Source: a virus
Strand: one strand, 5' to 3'
Length of the DNA: 64,000 nucleotides
Virus record (IMG/VR): IMGVR_UViG_3300032173_000004
Span: 11,816-75,815 of that record
Shown here: positions 31,279 through 55,765 of the stretch, in pieces
Layout of the letters: the number at the start of each line of letters is the position of its first letter
How positions within the stretch are numbered: the stretch's first letter is position 1
Notes under the pieces: generated by a model
Database searches by the model: none
Seen by the model: only the letters and a program-made list of their open reading frames with translations
What the model was told of the DNA's origin: nothing
Made by a program: the position numbers and the translations under genes

Positions 31279-31506
31279 CTACGCAGGTTTCTTTTGCGTC
31301 TGCAAGAAAAGTTTTGGCCTTCGATCACTTGGCTGAATCTTCGACGAGTCCAGCAAGACAGGCACCGGCACTTCCTCGCCGCAGTTCTTGCACACGGCGA
31401 AGGCTTTGCCATCGCGGAACACCATAACCTTGTTAAGGATTTTGACAGTCCCGTTGGCGGACTTCACCACCACACCACCACAAGGGCAGGTGATGACGTG
31501 CTCCAT
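31279..31506 (-). CDS. Zn-ribbon protein
   Basis: CPCGG...CKNCG. Confidence 0.65.
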   Translation of the reverse strand: MEHVITCPCGGVVVKSANGTVKILNKVMVFRDGKAFAVCKNCGEEVPVPVLLDSSKIQPSDRRPKLFLQTQKKPA

Positions 31507-34500
31507 CAGGCGACGGCCTGGATCCTGGAAATCATCGAATCGAGCAAGGATTTCGCAACGTTGCTATCTTGTCCCTGCTGTGGCCGATCTTCCTCGATCG
31601 GAGAGGTATCAGGCTCATCTTGCAGCTCGAAGCCGTCCGCACCGTCGTCCAGATCTCCCTTGCCCCCGTCCGCGTACTCTCTTCCATCGGGAGGAAGAGG
31701 TGGATCAGAAACACCCGTTGCCTGCTTGAACGACGCCCACTCTTGATCGTGCTCATGGAGCGGGTGACTGTGAATCCACTCGCTGAAGGCCTGCTCATCC
31801 GGCAGACGATCAGGGTGAGTTGCCGTTACGTGCCAGACCACAGGTCCGTACGTTCCCTGCGCAAGACTCTTCTCGATCTTCTTCAGCTTCTGGTAGTACT
31901 TCGGATCCTCTGTGAGATGATCCTTTGCGATCTCGTACGCAACGCTGGGATCATTGGTGTGCTCCATCTCCACCTTGATCCCCTCCATCACGCTGTCGAA
32001 GTCGAAATCCTTGTCAGCTCTTCCCTCTGCCAAACCACCAGGGATCTTATCCTTGGTGATCATGTAGGGATGCTTGTGAGTCCCGAAGACCTTGCTCTTG
32101 AACTCACGCATGGTCATCTGAGTCATCGATCCGAAAAAGTTCGGATTGTCGTAGTGCTTGAGGTAGGCCTTCTTCGCCTGCTTGGCCGAATCAAAGCCAA
32201 GCATACACTTGTCCTCGTCATACTGCTTGAAGTCCGGCCCCTTCATCTGGTGGATGACGAACACCTTGTCGGAGTTCCGACGTGGACCGACGTAGACGTC
32301 GACCTCTCCATTGTCCGTCCCCTCCGTCTTACGGATGAATCCGTACGGGTAGAGCATCTTCGTCTCACCCGTCTCTCCTGTCGCGTGATCCTCCCAACGG
32401 CGTATACTGCCGGCAGGATTCTCAATGGAGATCGGCAGGCCCTGAAACACCATCTTGCCTACGACACCGATCGAAGCTCCTGACTCTCGGTCGTCGATCT
32501 TCTGATGAAACGGCTGAGCTTTGCCAAGCTGGTGCTCGCTGCCTTCGAAGGCCGAATTCTCCGACGCCGGCTTCACATGCAACCAACGACCGGTCTTCTT
32601 GCTATCGACCCACCGGTAGCTACCGTGAACAGCGCCCGTTTCGGGATGAACCACGTCTCCGTGCCACTCCGACTTTGGATGAAGCTTCAGCTCCGTTCCA
32701 CTGTGGTCGGTGACCACTGCACGACCCATGCGTCCGCCTGGATCATGAGGAATGTTGATCTCACCTGGCTTCGTGCCGTACGACTTGTTCAGATCTGGGT
32801 TGTGGTGATGGATGGCCGCGATGTAGAGGGCCTCAACCAGCAGAGGATCGACGTACAGCTCCTGAGCAATCCTGTGGAAGCTGCCACCGCGGTGACCAAG
32901 CATCTGAGCCACTTGAGCCATCGCCTGCTTCGTGATCGCAGGCAGATTGTTCGGCTTCAGGTTGGCTTTCTTGGCAACCAGATTCTGGAAGACCTTCGAG
33001 AACAGCTCAGACCCGTGATAGACACGGAACTGGTTGAGTAGCAACCCAAACTGCTGATCCATGATCTGGGCCAACAGCGACTGGGGAATCCTCTGTCCGT
33101 TGATCTGAAACAGGTAGTCCTCTGGAGACTTGCCCTGCATCAGTTCCTGAAGGACTGCAGATGACTCGGAGTCCATGGTGACCACGGACTGATGCGGTCC
33201 ACCCGTCTTGTCCTTGTAGGTGAACTGGATCGTGTTGCCCTGAGGCGCCACGTCTTTCACCTTGATCGACAGAAGTCCACTTTCGTCGCCATCGGCCACC
33301 ATCTTGGCCTGATCCACCAGGGCCATGATGAGACCGAGAGCCCTCTCGCCCGGATCCTGGGACTGGAACAGGCTCGCATACCACTGACGAACCTTCTCCA
33401 GCTGCGCATCGACATGCTTCAGATCCTCATTGAACTTACGCCGAGGATCCTTCACACAGTCGCGGTGGAAGTAGTTGTGCTCGGTCTTGCCAGTCTCTGG
33501 GTCCTGATACCTCTGAGCCCAGTGATAGATATCAGGATCATAGTGATTATTGTCCTCAACCTCAGCACCCTCTGGAGCCGGGCGATTGAGCTTTCGACCA
33601 CGATGATCGAAGAACTGCGGTGCTACATCCGGCGTTGGCTCATGCGGGTGAACCTGAGGCGGACCTGCATTGGGATCATGGTGGGGGTGACCCTCAGGAG
33701 CGTTGGTTCCTCGGACCACGTTGCCTTGTGGATCTTCCCACATGTGCCGATGAGCACCAGGCTCTCCCTCTCTCCAGAGGTACTTCATGGTGTTGGAGTG
33801 CATCGGCTCTCCAGCCATTGCCTTGGCCAGAACATCCAGAGCCTCTTCGAAAAGAAGATCATCGAAGGCCTTGCGGGTGTACTCATACTGCGAATAGTCC
33901 GGCTCGTACTCCTCACCGGCAACGTCAGCGTACCTTTGGGCGTACTCGTCCTCCGGTTCTTTCGCAGCTGGACGGGACATGGCAGCCATGCGCTGCCGGT
34001 AGGCCTCTTCTTCTTTTCTACGCTGAGCCTGAATCTCCGGTGGGGCGAGATGAGCATACGGATCCTCTGTCGTCCCCGCCTCTACTGCTTCCGGCTCCAT
34101 CATGTGGCCGCCGCCAGCCAGCTCGTGAGCTGCTCCCTGATAGCCTTGCGTCTGCTGAAGCTGCTGTTGACGGGCTACCATCTGCTCTGGACCTGCCTGG
34201 TATCCAGTCCCCATCTTCAGACCCACACCACCAGGCTCACGACCCTGCCGAGCTTGGCCTCCCGGAGCCGGGCGTGCTGTCCACGACACCTCTGGCTCCT
34301 GGTACGGAACCGCACCAGCCTTCGGGCTGCGCATCACCTCTCCGGTCTCAGGATCGGCGAACTCAGCAGCACTTACCTGCATCGCACCCTTCGGCTTGGC
34401 AGCCTTGGCACCTTGCCTCTTGATCTCAGGCTGATCACGATACTCCCGCATCTGCTGTTCCTGTGCTGCCGACAAGAACTGAGGCAGACTTCGGATCATC

Positions 34501-36677
34501 TCACCGCGAGCAGTGTTGAGCAGGTGATTCTGAAACCGACCTCGATGCGGATTGTAGGTGTTGATGGCGTGCTCTACTGACGCGCCGATGGCGTGGCTGG
34601 CTAGCTCTTTGGCCAAGTCGTGAGATTGCGGATCCATGTGGCCACTGTACAGACCTCGAGGGCGCAGAACTCCATAGGCAGCCATGTTGTAGAGAGGGCC
34701 CATGTTCTCGGTCTGGATGTCTCGCTTGACCTTCCGTTCCAGCTCAGGACTGTTGAACTGAAGCTTGGGCGCCATACGAACATTGCGAATCTCGTGACCC
34801 AGAGAGTTGATCGTCGTTCTGACAGCTGTCGGTGCCTCACCCCACGTCCACGTTCCATGCTCCCCGTGCTCAAGAGCATTCGTGGTCTTCATCGGCTTGC
34901 GAGACTCTTTTCCTTCAGGACCACGACGAGGACGCCAGTCTGCGTCGTGCTCCACGTACGACGTGGGTTCCCATCCTGCCGTGTGCTTCAACTTCTGCCG
35001 TTCTGCGGGTGGCGTCGCTCCTCGCTCTTCCTCATCCTTGAGAAAGCGCATCGTCGATGCGTGCTTCGCCACGAAGTTTCGCAGATTGTCCGGCGTCTCC
35101 GCATGGCCGCGGGACCACTCTCCGGGCTCCTCGCCGTAGGCCTCAGCAAGAGCCTTTCCGTACTTGCTGGTCGTGTCGAACTGAGTCAGTGGCTTTCCAG
35201 TCCCTGTCTTCGGGCTGCGCCAGTGAAGCCACGGCTGACCATGAGGATCGTACTCCGTGTTGACCTGGTTCTGCAGCAGATGCCTTTCGAAGTCAGCCAT
35301 TGATCCAGGTCGATATGCCTGCTGCACGTTGGTCTTGCCAGGGGTCTGTCCGGGACCGTAGACGACAACAGAGCCCTTGGTGAACTTGGGCACACCTTTT
35401 TCGTCAACTGCGATCTCTTTCTGTTTGCCTGGCTGATCTCCCTTGCCACGGCGTCCCGCACCTCGGGCAGAGCCAGGCATGTGGATGATCTTGTCCTCGG
35501 TCTTGCCCGTGTCCTTGTTGAACAGCTGAGCCGGGAACGAACCACCCTCAGCGACATGCCACGCTCTCGAGTGATGATAGGCCTCCTCGGGAGAAGACAC
35601 GTTGGCAGCCTTGGTCTCTGGGTGGATGTCCATCGTGTGACCTGACAGACGACCCATGTGTTGAATGCCGTGGTGGCCCTCGGGATGCATCTCACCCGTG
35701 TAGGCGTACTGCCAACGGCCATTCTCCCACCACCTTTTGACGTACTGGTGACCCTGCTTCTCAGGAGCCGCCACAGGCTTCTGGGGCGCCGCAGCTGCCA
35801 CTGGGGCTGCCGGAGCCTTGGGAGCCGCTGCGGGGGCTTCCTGAGCCGCTGGAGCGCCTCCAGCAGCCTCTGCTTCGCCCAGAGCTTTGGACAGCAAGCC
35901 GCCCTCGAAATCCGGCCTCCAGCACCACAGGATACCGGTGGCTCCATCCAAAGAGCGTGCCAGGATGTTGGTGAACTTCTCCATACCAGCTCGGTCACCA
36001 GCCCCAAGATACCGGCGGATCTCCTGAATCGGATTGGTCATGGGAACCTTGATCCCGAGCACCTCCGACCAGGGCCTGCGCTGATTCTTTCCCGGTCGGA
36101 TCGGTCCCGGAGCTTTGTACTTGGTGTCTGACGTTCTCTCGTAGCCATACTTGAGAGCCAGAGGATCACCATTGGCGTCACGCGGCGTGTAGTCTCCGAA
36201 GGTGTCGACAGGCGACACTTGAGACGACATCACAGCGATCGACTTGGTGGCTTCCTTCTCTTCGTCCTTCTCCGTTTGCTCTTGAGCTTCTTCCTGCGCT
36301 TCGCCACTGTCCTGAGCATCCTGGGCAGCCTGCTCGTTCTCCTCTGCTTGACCAGAGTTGATCATGTCCTGGCGCTTCTCTTCACGCTTTCGCTGCAACT
36401 CTTCAGGATCACCACCGCGGAAGGTGCCTTCTTCTGACGGGTCCTTGGCCTTGCGAACCACAGGATTCTTGCGATCTGTGGTATTGACCCAGCTTGGCTC
36501 CATCCAGTCCGGCAGGCCGTCTGGTGTCGACTTGTCCACCTCAGCTTCCTGCCGCTTCTCTTCCCTCTTCTCCTGCATGTCCACCGGGTCACCACCGCGG
36601 AAGGTCCCATCCCCATCGCTATCGGACGCTTTGGAGATCATCTCATTGATGAGGTCGTGAGAGCTGCTAAGCCGCAT
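31506..36677 (-). CDS. Large multidomain (polyvalent-type) protein: sigma70-r2-like, topoisomerase IB-like, InPase and DUF5661-like modules
   Basis: ATG 36677 with SD GGAGG. InPase: GLPISIENPAGSIR...YGFIRKTEGTDNGEVDVYVG...DEDKCMLGF. TopIB-like: IQFTYKDKTG...FRVYHG...VAQMLGH...LYVDP. DUF5661-like: DKIPGGLA...GIKVEMEHT...IAKDHLTEDPKYY. Confidence 0.8.
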   Translation of the reverse strand: MRLSSSHDLINEMISKASDSDGDGTFRGGDPVDMQEKREEKRQEAEVDKSTPDGLPDWMEPSWVNTTDRKNPVVRKAKDPSEEGTFRGGDPEELQRKREEKRQDMINSGQAEENEQAAQDAQDSGEAQEEAQEQTEKDEEKEATKSIAVMSSQVSPVDTFGDYTPRDANGDPLALKYGYERTSDTKYKAPGPIRPGKNQRRPWSEVLGIKVPMTNPIQEIRRYLGAGDRAGMEKFTNILARSLDGATGILWCWRPDFEGGLLSKALGEAEAAGGAPAAQEAPAAAPKAPAAPVAAAAPQKPVAAPEKQGHQYVKRWWENGRWQYAYTGEMHPEGHHGIQHMGRLSGHTMDIHPETKAANVSSPEEAYHHSRAWHVAEGGSFPAQLFNKDTGKTEDKIIHMPGSARGAGRRGKGDQPGKQKEIAVDEKGVPKFTKGSVVVYGPGQTPGKTNVQQAYRPGSMADFERHLLQNQVNTEYDPHGQPWLHWRSPKTGTGKPLTQFDTTSKYGKALAEAYGEEPGEWSRGHAETPDNLRNFVAKHASTMRFLKDEEERGATPPAERQKLKHTAGWEPTSYVEHDADWRPRRGPEGKESRKPMKTTNALEHGEHGTWTWGEAPTAVRTTINSLGHEIRNVRMAPKLQFNSPELERKVKRDIQTENMGPLYNMAAYGVLRPRGLYSGHMDPQSHDLAKELASHAIGASVEHAINTYNPHRGRFQNHLLNTARGEMIRSLPQFLSAAQEQQMREYRDQPEIKRQGAKAAKPKGAMQVSAAEFADPETGEVMRSPKAGAVPYQEPEVSWTARPAPGGQARQGREPGGVGLKMGTGYQAGPEQMVARQQQLQQTQGYQGAAHELAGGGHMMEPEAVEAGTTEDPYAHLAPPEIQAQRRKEEEAYRQRMAAMSRPAAKEPEDEYAQRYADVAGEEYEPDYSQYEYTRKAFDDLLFEEALDVLAKAMAGEPMHSNTMKYLWREGEPGAHRHMWEDPQGNVVRGTNAPEGHPHHDPNAGPPQVHPHEPTPDVAPQFFDHRGRKLNRPAPEGAEVEDNNHYDPDIYHWAQRYQDPETGKTEHNYFHRDCVKDPRRKFNEDLKHVDAQLEKVRQWYASLFQSQDPGERALGLIMALVDQAKMVADGDESGLLSIKVKDVAPQGNTIQFTYKDKTGGPHQSVVTMDSESSAVLQELMQGKSPEDYLFQINGQRIPQSLLAQIMDQQFGLLLNQFRVYHGSELFSKVFQNLVAKKANLKPNNLPAITKQAMAQVAQMLGHRGGSFHRIAQELYVDPLLVEALYIAAIHHHNPDLNKSYGTKPGEINIPHDPGGRMGRAVVTDHSGTELKLHPKSEWHGDVVHPETGAVHGSYRWVDSKKTGRWLHVKPASENSAFEGSEHQLGKAQPFHQKIDDRESGASIGVVGKMVFQGLPISIENPAGSIRRWEDHATGETGETKMLYPYGFIRKTEGTDNGEVDVYVGPRRNSDKVFVIHQMKGPDFKQYDEDKCMLGFDSAKQAKKAYLKHYDNPNFFGSMTQMTMREFKSKVFGTHKHPYMITKDKIPGGLAEGRADKDFDFDSVMEGIKVEMEHTNDPSVAYEIAKDHLTEDPKYYQKLKKIEKSLAQGTYGPVVWHVTATHPDRLPDEQAFSEWIHSHPLHEHDQEWASFKQATGVSDPPLPPDGREYADGGKGDLDDGADGFELQDEPDTSPIEEDRPQQGQDSNVAKSLLDSMISRIQAVA

Positions 36678-36957
36678 TGGGACCCTCCGGGACGTCGCTC
36701 TGCGCACCAAGACCGCCGCCTTCCTGACCAGCGTTCTGCTTCATGTACAGGACATGATCTCGACCCTTGGCCGTACGGAGAAGCTCATCGATCTTGGTGT
36801 GAAGCTGCTCGTCGTGGATGTACATCTGCTCCAGCTTCTCAAGGCGCTGGATGATCTGTCTCATCTCGTCCAGGTCTTGAACCTGAAACAGGTAGCTCTC
36901 GTCAGGAAGAGCTGCTTGAGAAGCATTCAGAAGCGAATGAGCCTTGGAGTCGATCAT
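36667..36957 (-). CDS. Hypothetical protein
   Basis: 96 aa, closely packed between MuF and the large ORF. Confidence 0.6.
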   Translation of the reverse strand: MIDSKAHSLLNASQAALPDESYLFQVQDLDEMRQIIQRLEKLEQMYIHDEQLHTKIDELLRTAKGRDHVLYMKQNAGQEGGGLGAQSDVPEGPNAA

Positions 36958-50622: not shown

Positions 50623-50952
50623 TCAGTTTACCATGGGCTCAGAAGCAGAACGCAACCACCTTTTCACCACAGCCGGGACAGGAGGAACAGCCAACGAATG
50701 ACCCTTCGGGCAGGGTGGGTGCTTGATCTTGGACCAATGCTGCTTGATGGCCCACTGCTCAGCCTGGGCCCTTCTGTGAATGCTCCATTTCTGAAGGGCC
50801 TTCAGTGGAACCACGGCACCAACCAACTTCAACTCGTCTTGGATGATCTCCAATTCTACCTTGACGCACTCGTGCATCATTGGCTCCTCCGGCTGTTGGG
50901 TGATTTGAATCTGAGTCGTTCTAGTTGTCAAAGAAAAAGCAGATTCGCACAC
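50623..50952 (-). CDS. Hypothetical protein
   Basis: ORF; true start probably the internal ATG near 50880 (SD GGAGG). Confidence 0.45.
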   Translation of the reverse strand: MCESAFSLTTRTTQIQITQQPEEPMMHECVKVELEIIQDELKLVGAVVPLKALQKWSIHRRAQAEQWAIKQHWSKIKHPPCPKGHSLAVPPVPAVVKRWLRSASEPMVN

Positions 50953-51820
50953 GGTCCGGTGGCAGTCCTAGGGACTGCAACCACGGAAGAACCTCGCGAT
51001 GGAATCCGTATGTCGCCTCCGCATAGGTCATCGTCCAGCTCACCTGGGTGTACAGGTGATCCCAACCAGTGACTGCTGCACTGATCCTGGTCAACAGCAC
51101 TTTGTCTTTGGGAGTACCGAACCCGTTTAATGATCCGTAGCCTTCGCAGTCCGTCAACAAAGGCAACAACTTCTCGGCAACAAACGTATCCATTTCTTCA
51201 TTCGACACATGCCGCACATTTGGACCCGAAACACCACCACTCCAACAATGCGGACCCTTTCCAGCGGCCTTGTCTCCAGATTTGATCCACAATGCGTATA
51301 CAATAGAAGATACCGTCCCGTGCAACACAGTCGTCTGTTGCCAATCGTACTCAAGAAGCTCCTTGAGAGTCAGATACGAATGGCTGTGACCGTCGCCGTT
51401 CCACCGCTTCGCCTCGTCGCGATACTCCCTCGAGGCATCCGATGGAATCCCCTTCGGTGACGAGATAGGGCTGAACCCCTCACCCGTCTTGCAGCCCGCA
51501 AAACCTCGTCCGTTGCGCACGCCGGCTAGGATAGCGAACGTGTTGTAGCATCGCTCGTCCAGCGTCAGAATAGGATGCTTGCACTTGTGGTACTTGCCGC
51601 TGTCGAGCTTCGTCCGATCCTCCGTCAGAAAGTCCTCGATGTTGAAAGGAAGATCAATCGGCAAAGGACGAATCCCGTGGACGTACTCGGCGTGCAGTTC
51701 CGCCAGAAATGCATCGTAGTTGCTGTCACCGCGACCAAAGAAGTGACGAGGCTCCGGCAGCAGAACCCAGCGTCCTTTTTGATCTCGAACCTCAACATAC
51801 GGATGGATGTCGCAACCCAT
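50921..51820 (-). CDS. Phage protein of the MGCDIH type
   Basis: MGCDIH...RCYNTFAILAGVRNG...HSHSYLTLKELL...RICFFFDN. Confidence 0.75.
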   Translation of the reverse strand: MGCDIHPYVEVRDQKGRWVLLPEPRHFFGRGDSNYDAFLAELHAEYVHGIRPLPIDLPFNIEDFLTEDRTKLDSGKYHKCKHPILTLDERCYNTFAILAGVRNGRGFAGCKTGEGFSPISSPKGIPSDASREYRDEAKRWNGDGHSHSYLTLKELLEYDWQQTTVLHGTVSSIVYALWIKSGDKAAGKGPHCWSGGVSGPNVRHVSNEEMDTFVAEKLLPLLTDCEGYGSLNGFGTPKDKVLLTRISAAVTGWDHLYTQVSWTMTYAEATYGFHREVLPWLQSLGLPPDRVRICFFFDN

Positions 51821-51839: not shown

Positions 51840-51867
51840 TTGTACTGGCAGCGACACCTGTTCTAAC
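51840..51867 (-). promoter_or_regulatory. Phage-type promoter GTTAGAA-N14-AGTACAA
   Basis: One of four identically spaced copies upstream of genes. Confidence 0.75.
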
Positions 51868-52125: not shown

Positions 52126-52153
52126 GTTAGAATCGATGGGCGCCGCAGTACAA
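52126..52153 (+). promoter_or_regulatory. Phage-type promoter GTTAGAA-N14-AGTACAA
   Basis: Heads the plus-strand gene block. Confidence 0.75.
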
Positions 52154-52175: not shown

Positions 52176-52454
52176 ATGTGCATGATTTGCAAGTTGCAAG
52201 ACCAGATGCTGAAGCTAGCGCTACGGACAGCCAAGCTGCAGCAGAAGAACGACGACTTACCCGAGGCCGTCCAACGTCGTCTTCAAGCATCGGCTCTTCT
52301 CATCACGGCTGCGGCCAGGATCATTGACGGCATCAGCGATGACAGAGCAGATCTCATGGCCACTCTGGCGGTGAACCAGGCCAACTCCATCCTTCACCAC
52401 ACTGAAGGGTGCCACATCACCAACCAGCAGAAGCCTGAAAGCGCACCGAACTAG
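52176..52454 (+). CDS. Hypothetical protein
   Basis: 92-aa ORF after the promoter motif. Confidence 0.55.
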   Translation: MCMICKLQDQMLKLALRTAKLQQKNDDLPEAVQRRLQASALLITAAARIIDGISDDRADLMATLAVNQANSILHHTEGCHITNQQKPESAPN

Positions 52455-52461
52455 GAGACCG

Positions 52462-52650
52462 ATGATGCTCAAGATCAACACGAATCGACCAGCACAAATC
52501 GTGCTTCCAGACTGGAAGAAGCAGCCCATCCGGCGCCTGCGCTGGTCCGTAGGGATGCATCTCATCGACCTAGGGGCACGCGTCATGAGCATGTCGAAAC
52601 CGGGCAAGGCTGGACTCGTCATGGTGCTGGCCAACGAGCTTAGGCGCTGA
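52462..52650 (+). CDS. Hypothetical protein
   Basis: SD AGGAG. Confidence 0.5.
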   Translation: MMLKINTNRPAQIVLPDWKKQPIRRLRWSVGMHLIDLGARVMSMSKPGKAGLVMVLANELRR

Positions 52651-52895
52651 TGATTACCCCAAGATCACAGCAAGAGATTCTAAACGAGATCGTCTCGTTG
52701 TTGCCGGTATCCATGCAGGAGGCAGCGCTTCGTCCAGACTCCAACATGAACCTGCTGCTAATGGCGATCAGCTTAGGAGTGGCCAGTTCAGAGATTCGTC
52801 TGGTGGCCATGCTCAATGAGCATCTGAAACATCACGAACCGTCCATCACCCCACTGCCCACGCCTTTGGATCGGTCCCCGAAGGCGCCATGGTGA
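52650..52895 (+). CDS. Hypothetical protein
   Basis: TGATG-coupled. Confidence 0.5.
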   Translation: MITPRSQQEILNEIVSLLPVSMQEAALRPDSNMNLLLMAISLGVASSEIRLVAMLNEHLKHHEPSITPLPTPLDRSPKAPW

Positions 52896-52902
52896 TCACC
52901 AC

Positions 52903-53295
52903 ATGCGTCCTCCTGCACGAAAGCCGGCGCCGCCCGCTAAGAAGCCTCCTGCGAAGCCACCTGCGAAACGATCTGAGCCCGAGGACCCGCTCCAGGAGTC
53001 GGTCACCAACATCGAGTCCACGATCAAAGACCGTGACCGAGACGAAGCTGCAGAAGCCAAAGAGGCTCAGAAACCAGAGCCCATACCGACCCTGAGAATC
53101 TTTGATCGCAAGCATTTGTGGGCTTGGTTACACCAAGCACCGGATGAGGTTCTCCGGGAACTCTACCAGACCTGTATGGACCGGCACGGACTCAGTGACC
53201 TCGGTTGCCTGCTCCGGGAGTACTTCACCATGAGGAAGTACTACCCCAACAACCCCCTGTCCGCCTCTCGTTGTCCTTTCTGCAAGGATCACTGA
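52903..53295 (+). CDS. Hypothetical protein with basic PPAKK N-terminus
   Basis: 130 aa, C-terminal CPFC. Confidence 0.55.
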   Translation: MRPPARKPAPPAKKPPAKPPAKRSEPEDPLQESVTNIESTIKDRDRDEAAEAKEAQKPEPIPTLRIFDRKHLWAWLHQAPDEVLRELYQTCMDRHGLSDLGCLLREYFTMRKYYPNNPLSASRCPFCKDH

Positions 53296-53377
53296 TTTTC
53301 TACTTGCATTCTTCTCGTGATCCACTACTATGATTCTTAATTCGACGCCAACAGGCGGACTACACAGGAGAAGATCA

Positions 53378-53602
53378 ATGCGTCTGAGTGACACCCAGAA
53401 GAAGATCCTCAAGAAGGTCGATGGCAAGGCCAAGGTGACTCCGGGCGATCTGGCCCACACCATGAAGAGCTACCCCGGCCCCATCTCCAGATCCCTTCAG
53501 GCCCTCGAAGGCATGGGACTGATGGTCAGCCAGGAGAACAAGGCCGGTGTGACGTCCTACAGCCGCAGCGCCGAAGGCAGCAAGATCGCCAAGACCCTCT
53601 AG
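53378..53602 (+). CDS. Winged-helix (MarR-like) DNA-binding protein
   Basis: MRLSDTQKKIL...VTPGDLAH...ISRSLQALEGMGLM...SAEG. SD AGGAG. Confidence 0.7.
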   Translation: MRLSDTQKKILKKVDGKAKVTPGDLAHTMKSYPGPISRSLQALEGMGLMVSQENKAGVTSYSRSAEGSKIAKTL

Positions 53603-53631: not shown

Positions 53632-53659
53632 GTTAGAACAGCTTCTCACCCTAGTACAA
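53632..53659 (+). promoter_or_regulatory. Phage-type promoter GTTAGAA-N14-AGTACAA
   Basis: Upstream of the histone-fold gene. Confidence 0.75.
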
Positions 53660-53701
53660 CTAGGCAGACACCAAAATGCCCAACGGGCCATGGAGACTGC
53701 C

Positions 53702-53899
53702 ATGCTAGTTGTCGTATCCAAGATCAAGGCGATGGGAAAGAAGGTCAACCTGCGCATCGGCATGGACTTCTGCACCAAGCTTTCAGAGGTCATCGTCCAG
53801 ATCGTGATCGCCGCCGCCAAGAACGCCAGAGAAGAGGGCATGGGAACCGTCAAGGCGCGGCACATGCCAACCTCCATGGACTTCAATCTGGAGAACTAG
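53702..53899 (+). CDS. Bacterial-type histone-fold protein (Bd0055-like)
   Basis: MLVVVSKIKAMGKKVNLRIGMDFCTKLSEVIVQIVIAAAKNAREEGMGTVKARHM aligns with the LVVxSKVK...AKxxGRKTVxxRD pattern of bacterial/archaeal histones. Confidence 0.8.
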   Translation: MLVVVSKIKAMGKKVNLRIGMDFCTKLSEVIVQIVIAAAKNAREEGMGTVKARHMPTSMDFNLEN

Positions 53900-53900
53900 G

Positions 53901-54179
53901 TTGGCCACCTACGACCGACAGACCTGCGAGGACTTCGTAGAACGTGCCCGAGTCATCCTCACCGAGAATGCGTTTGTAGAACTGTGGGCATGGGTCAGCA
54001 AGGGAACAAGCTGGACCATGGGACAGAACTACTGTGACGGCTTTGTGGCCGAGTGGATCAACATGCCAATCTGGAACAAGCAAGCTGTGCTGTTCTTGAT
54101 GGCGCCGCACATCGATCGCATCGCCCGAGACCGCGCCAAGCGCCTCGCTGACAAAGCTCGTATTGAGGACCCAGAGTGA
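53901..54179 (+). CDS. Hypothetical protein
   Basis: 92-aa ORF in the operon. Confidence 0.5.
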   Translation: MATYDRQTCEDFVERARVILTENAFVELWAWVSKGTSWTMGQNYCDGFVAEWINMPIWNKQAVLFLMAPHIDRIARDRAKRLADKARIEDPE

Positions 54180-54373
54180 TCCTACGTGTTCGAAAGTCCT
54201 GCATGATCGACAACGATGGGTGGGCACTGTACGAACTTCTAGATAAAGATCAAAGATTGTCCGTTTTCTCTGCACCCGTTGATGCAGAACCTGACGATGT
54301 CCTAGCCGAAGCCTGGGACCACGCACCAGACCCAAGTCGGGTCGAAGACATCATCCTGGAGAAGCCATCATGA
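54176..54373 (+). CDS. Hypothetical acidic protein
   Basis: GTGA-coupled. Confidence 0.5.
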   Translation: MILRVRKSCMIDNDGWALYELLDKDQRLSVFSAPVDAEPDDVLAEAWDHAPDPSRVEDIILEKPS

Positions 54374-54768
54374 GCGAAGGATCATCCCCACTGTCCATCG
54401 TAGGGTATAAAGATGATCAAGACCTACGATACGTCACCTGGAACCAGAACTTCCTAACGTATGTTGCCACGGACGCACACCTCAAACACCGGGAGGCAAT
54501 AGTCTACTGCAACGTCGCAAAGAATCGCGTTCGCATCGTTGCCGTCTTCTACGGCTTGCCAGTCCTCATCCTGCCGCCAATCGATCCGAGCGACAGAATC
54601 AGCCTGTATCTGAAGATCAACGAGTTCCTTCGAAAGTTCAGCGGAACCAAGAAGGCCACGGAGTTCTTCGATACCGAGATCTCCAGTGCCAAGGAACGCC
54701 TGGAACAGCTGCAGGAGCGCCAAGCTTTGGCACACCAAGCGCAGCAGAAACGGAGCAAGAAGAGATGA
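54370..54768 (+). CDS. Hypothetical protein, weakly IS66 TnpB(Orf2)-like
   Basis: DLRY...AIVYCNVAKNRVRIV loosely recalls DMRK...LFVFRNRRRDRIKIL. Confidence 0.4.
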   Translation: MSEGSSPLSIVGYKDDQDLRYVTWNQNFLTYVATDAHLKHREAIVYCNVAKNRVRIVAVFYGLPVLILPPIDPSDRISLYLKINEFLRKFSGTKKATEFFDTEISSAKERLEQLQERQALAHQAQQKRSKKR

Positions 54769-55142
54769 CTAAGAAACGAGAGGTGAAGTTCACAGAGGCC
54801 AACGCAGTCAAAGCCTGGGTTCTCTACAACACACCCGGCAGCGGTACCACCCGGGGACAAATCGGAGAGAAATTCGGCGTTGGAGCCGGTGCCATTGACC
54901 ACTGGATCAAGAAAGTAGAAGACAACCCCGCCCTATTGGCGAGGGCCAAGGATCAGCTCAAAAGAAAGACCAAGCCCTTGCCGTACTCTGAGGGAGGACC
55001 AGCCGAGAGCCCGCTGGAACGATCTGTCGACAAGATCATCGCACTGGAAGAAGAGAACAAGTTCCTGAAGTGGTGGAACGAGGGCGAGCGCAGTGGATGG
55101 GTCAACGAGCTTCTGAAGCGCATCGGTCGCACTGAAGAATGA
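54765..55142 (+). CDS. HTH_Tnp_1-like helix-turn-helix plus coiled-coil protein
   Basis: KFTEANAVKAW...TRGQIGEKFGVGAGAIDHWIKK...IIALEEENKFLK. Confidence 0.6.
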   Translation: MTKKREVKFTEANAVKAWVLYNTPGSGTTRGQIGEKFGVGAGAIDHWIKKVEDNPALLARAKDQLKRKTKPLPYSEGGPAESPLERSVDKIIALEEENKFLKWWNEGERSGWVNELLKRIGRTEE

Positions 55143-55354
55143 GCGGTTGGCCATCTCCAGAAGAAATTGCCAATCGACAGCTGAAGGCGTACGAATCCGC
55201 CGATGAAAACGGCGACTGGGATCCGATCTGCGACTGCGGAGAATCAGGGTATGCTTGCCGGTGCTCAGAGCTAGAGGAAACATACGGTCCCAATCCATAC
55301 AAGATTTTCGCCGTATGGACACGGCGCCTAGAGCGCCCACCAGGACGGTGGTGA
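55139..55354 (+). CDS. Hypothetical protein
   Basis: CDC...CRC. Confidence 0.5.
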   Translation: MSGWPSPEEIANRQLKAYESADENGDWDPICDCGESGYACRCSELEETYGPNPYKIFAVWTRRLERPPGRW

Positions 55355-55357
55355 TCC

Positions 55358-55765
55358 ATGAACGAGTACCACGTACAGCTGGCATCCATCCTGGACACTA
55401 TCAAGAGAAGAACAGTCGAAGAGCTGATCAAGGTCTGCGGCTACATCTTGGTGGTGTTCGTGGTTGAAGACGTAGAGCTGTCGCCGCAAGCAAGATCGAA
55501 GATCGCTGAGAACGGCACCTTAGGAATTCACGTAGGCTACGATCTCATCCCCAACCTAGTTCTGGACGAGACAGGCTTCCGTGGCGACTTCTCCTTCGAT
55601 CAGGTGATGTCCCAGCTCAGTGTCCCTTGGAGCTACGTGATGGCCCTGGCCATACCGGTAGGCAGGCCCCCCAACGCGCACCTCCCGGTGGCCACCTTCG
55701 CACCTTACAACACACCTCCGGTGGCTCCCAAGCCCAAAGAGAAGCCAAATCTCAAGCTTGTCTAA
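55358..55765 (+). CDS. sspB: SspB-like ClpXP adaptor
   Basis: NLVLDETGFRGDFSFDQVMSQLSVPWSYVMAL core, Pro-rich linker and C-terminal KPNLKLV resembling the ClpX-binding tail. Confidence 0.7.
   Translation: MNEYHVQLASILDTIKRRTVEELIKVCGYILVVFVVEDVELSPQARSKIAENGTLGIHVGYDLIPNLVLDETGFRGDFSFDQVMSQLSVPWSYVMALAIPVGRPPNAHLPVATFAPYNTPPVAPKPKEKPNLKLV

Follow-up and report, generated by a model that had tools for sequence, protein, structure and literature searches.

A predicted bacterial-type histone of a large uncultured phage, with a methionine-histidine pair at the site of the arginine-aspartate clamp

Bacterial histones were recognised only in 2023, and the copies encoded by phages are known from computer surveys only. 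The reference for the present comparison is HBb (Bd0055) of Bdellovibrio bacteriovorus, an alpha3 histone of the "bacterial dimer" type represented by several solved structures (PDB 8fvx, 8fw7, 8cmp, 9ezz, 9f0e; PMC10627809, PMC11317129). Its main contacts with DNA are made by N22, R57, S9, T53, T8, S24, K10, K12, K52 and K16, and its R51 and D58 constitute a structural RD clamp in which R51 makes no DNA contact (Hu et al. 2024). Alpha3-truncated histones are described as having an alpha3 of 3-4 residues and an alpha2 shorter than that of nucleosomal histones (Schwab et al. 2024, PMC11390915). Among viral proteins, the accessible part of Liu et al. (2025, hLife; PMC13681535; bioRxiv 10.1101/2024.12.06.627149) reports 84 bacterial-like histones of Caudoviricetes from IMG/VR and, among the types it describes, "Bd0055-like viral histones" (BBVH) predicted to be DNA-bending dimers. 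The "phage histones" of Schwab et al. (2024, PMC11390915; A0A2E7QIQ9) show low similarity to other histones and have a C-terminal alpha-helical tetramerisation domain, with a DNA-bridging tetramer as the predicted assembly.

The histone gene considered here lies in a window of viral DNA (the whole stretch analysed, 64,000 nucleotides) and belongs, as far as the accessible text of Liu et al. (2025) allows it to be compared, to the BBVH kind catalogued in 2024-2025: it is phage-encoded, comes from IMG/VR, has a Bd0055-like fold and is predicted to dimerise, whereas BBVH proteins carry a C-terminal helix that replaces the flexible loop of Bd0055 and the window protein has no helix past residue 58. 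The kind of gene is therefore already known and this one is a clean, well-supported example of it; the details that are new here are the Met51/His58 replacement of the clamp, the sprocket-like R22 and the acidic tail, and that same accessible text (PMC13681535) makes no mention of loss of the RD clamp. With HBb the protein has in common its length class, a short alpha2, a one-turn alpha3, the alpha1 lysines 11, 13 and 17, T53 and R57, the lack of the R and N tetramerisation residues and, as modelled here, the dimer. It differs in being only ~30% identical (28-30% in Foldseek alignments), in the changes R51-D58 to M51-H58, K52 to G, N22 to R22 and M55 to K55, in a mildly acidic tail of 10 residues, and in being encoded by a phage and not by a cell. 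Only a functional analogy connects it with TF1 of Bacillus phage SPO1, the small, abundant, HU-type DNA-bending protein of a large myovirus, whose HU/IHF fold is unrelated. The "phage histones" of Schwab et al. resemble it in their alpha3 fold, their origin in tailed-phage metagenomes and the absence of the full RxTxxxD motif, but the window protein, whose fold is followed by only 10-11 residues, has no tetramerisation domain and clearly resembles HBb as well as HTkC of Thermococcus kodakarensis; the C-termini of its relatives likewise are short acidic tails and form no domain. HTkC, a face-to-face alpha3 histone (PDB 9f2c), is the best single-sequence match in the PDB (34% identity in the Foldseek alignment) and also has a histidine at the position of the clamp aspartate (..ARH), with R-V-S in loop L1 where the window protein has R-I-G and its relatives R-T-S; unlike the window protein, which is without the R and N residues, HTkC is tetrameric and has both the clamp arginine and K52 in place (GRKT).

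Genomic setting and the promoter-like element

The window makes up the final 64 kb of an IMG/VR virus record of 75.8 kb, which CheckV rates as ~45% complete, a partial genome whose other DNA-binding proteins and replication module are out of view. The DNA comes from a sediment metagenome, with part of it also present in a peat metagenome, has a G+C content of ~56% in the window, and none of the sequencing runs listed as carrying the window sequence is an RNA run. From ~0.5 to 46 kb the minus strand encodes baseplate, tail sheath, tail fibre, major head, scaffold, portal and minor head proteins. Among the best matches listed for the major head protein are its counterparts in SPO1-like Bacillus phages, at 42-46% identity. 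Judged from these genes, the virus is a large uncultured myovirus with an SPO1-like capsid, and the claim of the sequence-only reading that the histone is phage-encoded is borne out by the tail sheath, baseplate, portal, scaffold and SPO1-like major capsid protein together with the virus record itself. From ~51.8 kb onwards the genes are small, mostly on the plus strand and non-structural; the histone gene, which lies in this region, is on the strand opposite to the head and tail genes. A search for HU-family genes in four partial phage records found none. Between the head genes there is also an ORF of 1734 aa (31506-36710, minus strand) whose matches to minor head and virion structural PHROGs are confined to residues ~1416-1545, the remainder being unassigned.

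The features on which the following account relies are these:

53632-53638, plus strand: GTTAGAA, the -35-like half of the element at the histone gene, one of four bipartite copies
53653-53659, plus strand: AGTACAA, the -10-like half, containing TACAAC (4/6 to TATAAT) 16 nt after TTAGAA; putative promoter function
53690-53899, plus strand: histone ORF in its longest form, 69 aa, an in-frame ATG at 53690 adding 4 residues
53692-53696, plus strand: Shine-Dalgarno-like GGAGA, read from the sequence, 5 nt before the ATG at 53702
53702-53899, plus strand: histone gene, 65 aa and a TAG stop, likely start ATG 53702
53901-55765, plus strand: six ORFs downstream of the histone gene, packed tightly or overlapping (92, 65, 132, 125, 71 and 135 aa)
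51840-51867, minus strand: second bipartite copy, pointing at the gene at 50921-51820
52126-52153, plus strand: third bipartite copy, heading the small upstream plus-strand genes at 52176-53602
62386-62413, minus strand: fourth bipartite copy, the AGTAGAA variant, upstream of a small minus-strand gene

The start is placed at ATG 53702 because GGAGA lies 5 nt upstream, homologues begin with MLVVVSK and the public-collection gene call (P0002) is 65 aa long; the homologue on viral contig L003 has GGAG before its MLVVVSK start. With this start the length of 65 aa given earlier holds, while residue numbers throughout refer to the 69-aa form.

The sequence-only reading had placed the gene directly behind a GTTAGAA motif and credited it with its own phage promoter. 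By itself the heptamer is no more frequent than chance would have it (five copies against 2.48 expected, with five or more in 11 of 100 shuffles). The bipartite pattern GTTAGAA-N14-AGTA[C/G]AA, by comparison, occurs four times against 0.29 expected, and the core pattern TTAGAA-N15-17-TA[C/G]AA four times against 0.14; all four intergenic copies of GTTAGAA extend into this bipartite element, which vindicates the placement of the histone behind a recurring promoter-like motif. The element can be read as sigma70-like (TTAGAA, a 16-nt spacer, TACAA[C/T]), and its four copies, all at 51.8-62.4 kb, each point to a gene start 15-45 nt downstream; the structural region and the opening 11.8 kb of the record contain none. 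We infer that it is a phage-specific promoter, its activity and the timing of expression included. In the loci of the relatives the motif was not found at up to two mismatches, nor was a shared motif seen by eye. What does not stand is the word "own": because the copy at 53632-53659 precedes both the histone gene and the six tightly packed or overlapping ORFs that extend to 55765, the promoter-like element, although directly upstream of the histone, would serve the whole set. These six ORFs are probably co-transcribed with the histone gene, which on this arrangement is the first cistron of a predicted seven-gene operon.

Several neighbours deserve mention. The 92-aa gene (53901-54179, plus strand) starts 1 nt past the histone stop and has no family match; a homologue with 43% identity occurs in the histone-bearing phages G002 and G003, ~4.2 kb upstream of their histone, and its product is possibly a functional partner of the histone. 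The last gene of the predicted operon (55358-55765, plus strand) is SspB-like (Pfam PF04386, E 1.1e-5, 26.0 bits, below the 27-bit cut-off), and a word-based search with it retrieved only itself and no relative. Just upstream of the promoter-like element, a 90-aa protein (53330-53602, plus strand) has weak winged-helix matches, all below cut-off (HTH_24 0.0034, MarR 0.021), and may be a small phage regulator. Between the element and the histone start there is a 10-codon ORF, MPNGPWRLPC (53676-53708, plus strand), which overlaps the start in another frame and is probably there by chance.

Fold, dimer and DNA-contact positions

Taken singly, the window protein is recognised as a histone only at the margin. 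A phmmer search of the PDB gave marginal E-values of 0.011-0.038, all four matches being histones (HTkC 9f2c, HmvA 8bdk, HBb 8fvx and 8cmp), a Pfam scan gave no match at E≤1, including CBFD_NFYB_HMF (PF00808) and DUF1931 (PF09123), a PHROGs scan of the single protein gave nothing, and a word-based protein search returned the protein alone. A HMMER scan of 1.84 billion representatives, however, retrieved 18 relatives (E 3.5e-13 to 5e-4; alignment A1), and the resulting profile of 19 family members matches HBb 8fvx and 8cmp over the full length at 8e-14, HTkC 9f2c at 2e-13, HLp 9qt0 at 2e-9, HmvA at 3e-6 and HMfA at 6e-4. The same profile gathers 1554 proteins at E≤1e-3, some of them labelled "histone H3/H4" by JGI, and of 19 relatives scanned against Pfam, five matched PF00808 (best E 0.0024) and three PF09123 (best 0.00014), in each case weakly.

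With A1 as input, AlphaFold2 returned a model (pLDDT 92.3, pTM 0.73) with helices at residues 9-18 and 25-48 and a 3-residue helical turn (DSSP H) at 56-58. Its top nine Foldseek matches in the PDB are HBb, HLp and HTkC (TMt 0.83-0.88, rmsd 1.0-2.1 A), those beyond the top nine are histone folds without exception, and in the ESM Atlas the closest clusters comprise Bdellovibrionota histones and, in one case, viral members only. Without an alignment AlphaFold2 produced one long helix (pLDDT 81.5, pTM 0.37), which was set aside as uninformative for an obligate dimer. Profile, model and structural matches thus agree with the single Bd0055-like histone fold proposed at the outset, and the outcome that was named as contradicting it, a predicted structure other than a histone fold, did not materialise. 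A histone fold, an alpha3 of 3 residues, an alpha2 of 24 residues and profile homology to solved members characterise the protein as alpha3-truncated, and by sequence and model alike we regard the gene as a real 65-codon bacterial-type histone of that class.

Modelling of the homodimer, which the sequence-only reading had suggested as a check, passed its controls: the model scored 0.59 against 0.01 for the best control, a mark that 20 of 30 proteins solved as one-chain pairs reached, as did 1 of 23 single-chain structures, although the pass may reflect likeness to HBb because HBb dimers have already been solved. Contact agreement among the runs was at least 93% and partner pLDDT at least 77. 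The modelled contacts are those of a handshake, with L1 (residues 21-24) set against L2 (52-55) of the other chain, R22 with T53, and the alpha2 helices crossing at 35:35, and the protein most likely forms a head-to-tail handshake homodimer. A histone of the face-to-face tetramer type was considered and rejected, the R and N interface residues being absent: the positions in question are occupied by N45 and E49 (D49 in HBb).

Loop L2 reads GMGTVKARH, as had been stated, where the alignment places GRKTVMARD in HBb; only the threonine of the RKTxxxxD motif is kept (M51-G52-T53-V-K-A-R-H58). From this the sequence-only reading had concluded that basic residues were lost. Position by position, the comparison with HBb runs as follows:

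HBb S9, phage S10: kept
HBb K10, phage K11: kept
HBb K12, phage K13: kept
HBb K16, phage K17: kept
HBb T53, phage T53: kept
HBb R57, phage R57: kept
HBb N22, phage R22: basic replacement
HBb T8, phage V9: lost
HBb S24, phage G24: lost
HBb K52, phage G52: lost
HBb M55 (no listed contact), phage K55: lysine gained

Seven of the ten contact positions are therefore kept or conservatively replaced (S10, K11, K13, K17, R22 for N22, T53 and R57), and K11, K13 and K17 are the conserved alpha1 lysines of HBb-type dimers. The core (residues 5-59) has a net charge of +6; singlets outside the phage type, taken as mostly cellular from the size of their contigs, average +2.7. As R51 is a structural clamp residue and not a DNA contact, the premise of lost basic residues is weak; with R22 and K55 also present it was largely a misreading, though K52 is indeed gone. 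What the alignment indicates is loss of the clamp, not of the basic ridge, the salt bridge of nearly all histones being replaced by a methionine-histidine pair. Even so, the window copy is the most altered at L1 and L2 among its near relatives, with I23/G24 in place of the T23/S24 of HBb, G52 and no clamp, and these changes could have reduced its affinity for DNA or changed its mode of binding.

A phage-type group of singlets and its distribution

Among 163 aligned histone domains, 56 singlets group together by R22, by K55 and usually also by G52. None of these phage-type singlets departs from S10, K13, R22, T53 or K55, and few do so at K11, K17 or R57; they end in a short acidic C-terminal tail (mean length 9-11 residues, mean charge about -3), whereas the other singlets have almost no tail. 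The tail of the window protein, 10-11 residues long, is mildly acidic and non-helical in the model (pLDDT 74 over the last block). The L1 motif of the group, R22-[T/V/I]-S, is the same as the R-V-S of HTkC. HMfB, too, presumably has R-V-S as its L1 motif, with R19 as the sprocket arginine. Bacterial singlets, according to Hocher et al., are without this sprocket arginine.

The clamp varies as a pair. Over the 163 domains it is R/D in 123 and x/H in 32 ([M/V/I/L/S]..H), with three mixed pairs only, and within the phage-type group it is either R..D (27/28) or [M/I/V/L/S]..H (28); the association of R/D versus x/H is a count and does not prove that the two positions changed together repeatedly, as only one independent pair lies on supported branches. 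The nearest relatives of the window protein are R..D proteins of sister phages, P0044 of phage G001 being 64-67% identical to it, and this grouping hints at a second origin of the M..H form, while a single x..H clade was not rejected by an AU test (p 0.319) on a tree built from 54-56 columns.

In IMG/VR, pattern scans turned up relatives on at least 11 further viral contigs (15-190 kb), with one copy per record. Among 185,579 species genomes two such scans gave no relative, and since they are limited by the patterns used they do not prove absence from reference genomes; a tblastn search of 50,697 deposited phage genomes with three family members gave no match. All phage-type members seen came from viral contigs or from unclassified metagenome contigs of up to 152 kb, so that the group looks virus-restricted and uncultured as far as these collections go. 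The hint, made from the sequence alone, that the gene betrays a histone-bearing host finds no support in them, no close relative having turned up in the species genomes within reach of the patterns.

The surroundings of the gene in other phages are varied. G001 (115 kb; L002/L009) and L011 (77.6 kb) have the portal and several other genes in common with this phage, and in both the histone lies a few kb from portal and head genes; in L011 it comes after the gene for a GxxGxGKS P-loop protein that by eye appears deoxynucleoside-kinase-like. A more distant histone-bearing phage (L003:6504-9728, IMGVR_UViG_3300027792_000061) has the order gp32-like SSB, histone (M..H, 65 aa), MazG and RecA, with Pfam matches at 1.2e-8 for gp32, 1.1e-7 for MazG and 3.6e-37 for RecA. 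The same arrangement is also present in L004 and is likewise stated for G002 and G003. The L003 histone is, judging from these annotations, embedded in a replication and recombination module.

Proposed role and alternatives

We consider it likely, with a probability of roughly 60%, that the product is a non-specific DNA-binding homodimer of the HBb type, acting most probably on replicating phage DNA. The homodimer would bind the DNA backbone through its paired L1-L2 loops and the N-terminus of alpha1, independently of sequence, with S10, K11, K13, K17, R22, T53, K55 and R57 as the proposed binding residues; Met51 and His58 would take the place of the Arg-Asp clamp that fixes loop L2, and the bound DNA would be bent or coated inside the infected cell as HBb does with the Bdellovibrio chromosome. 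A DNA-binding dimer is favoured because the contacts are conserved, the core is basic, the dimer can be modelled, the gene is a first cistron with a good ribosome-binding site and relatives have replication and recombination genes as neighbours.

The same dimer could instead be directed at the host nucleoid, being made early so as to compact or silence host DNA and contribute to host shut-off. A neighbourhood of small non-structural genes, HTH proteins and an SspB-like gene is typical of host takeover, and HBb-type binding, lacking sequence specificity, would include host DNA, yet by the same token nothing in such a binder tells host from phage DNA, and the neighbours of the relatives (gp32-like SSB, MazG, RecA, the kinase-like P-loop protein) fit phage DNA metabolism better, which makes a host target unlikely. 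It is quite improbable that the fold no longer binds DNA at all and serves as a protein-protein adaptor, for example through its tail. The RD clamp and K52 have gone, phage-type members typically end in an acidic tail, and there is a precedent in the DUF1931 pseudodimers, described as being without DNA-binding residues (PMC12701072); against this, 56 members show little or no variation in the basic ridge (K11, K13, K17, R22, K55, R57) or at T53, a conservation hard to explain without a nucleic-acid ligand.

The sequence-only reading had suggested, next to coating or protection of phage DNA, a protein that has lost DNA binding and poisons host chromatin by pairing with a host histone. Histone folds do heterodimerise readily, and the window protein has other residues in place of R51, K52 and D58 of the RKT..D signature. 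But the majority of contact positions are intact, the core carries more positive charge than that of other, mostly cellular singlets, the homodimer is modelled with confidence, and relatives in sister phages (P0044 in G001) keep R..D, so that the family overall looks like a working histone; histone-bearing bacteria, moreover, are a minority (Schwab et al. 2024, PMC11390915). None of the evidence assembled here supports such poisoning, and we hold it to be very improbable. Equally slight is the chance that the protein is packaged in the virion, where it would condense the DNA in the head or be injected to protect incoming DNA: Hocher et al. (2023) report that HBb forms a sheath around straight DNA, and in G001 and L011 the gene is only a few kb from portal and head genes, but in this phage the head and tail genes are on the other strand, and the histone gene stands amid small non-structural ones, whose promoter type it shares and the structural genes do not.

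A more specific proposal, which we think distinctly unlikely, is that these are miniature histones found only in viruses, in which the clamp, held to be a hallmark of histone folds, has become a hydrophobic residue plus histidine, R22-T53 has been kept, an acidic tail has been added and the histidine switches binding. If it were true, the histidine would make L2 and its binding to DNA switchable by pH or metal, the phage would coat its DNA during replication and strip the coat before packaging, and the sprocket-type Arg22-Thr53 pair would be without a counterpart in Bdellovibrio-type histones. Whatever the function, relatives with the Arg-Asp clamp and those with its Met/Val/Ile-His replacement make a natural pair for studying the role of the clamp in L2 and in DNA binding, and a protein this small and easily expressed offers a handle on why large phages carry a chromatin protein of their own.

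Other members of the wider family differ from the window protein in ways worth recording. Glu/Asp-rich tails of 15-30 residues occur in many phage-type histones (P0004, P0012, P0016, P0020, P0025, P0028 and P0031 in alignments A1 and A3), and such strongly acidic tails recall those of gp32, SSB or HMGB. The nearest large non-viral group consists of fused doublets of 119-141 aa (P0015, P0040, P0048-P0052 and others) with R..D in both halves, some of them on contigs of 0.5-3 Mb that are presumably cellular. One viral contig of 101 kb (L018:5944-6165, IMGVR_UViG_3300006056_000002) encodes a far more HBb-like copy, with N22 and GRKTVMARD, so that phages carry the HBb type as well as the R22/K55 type.
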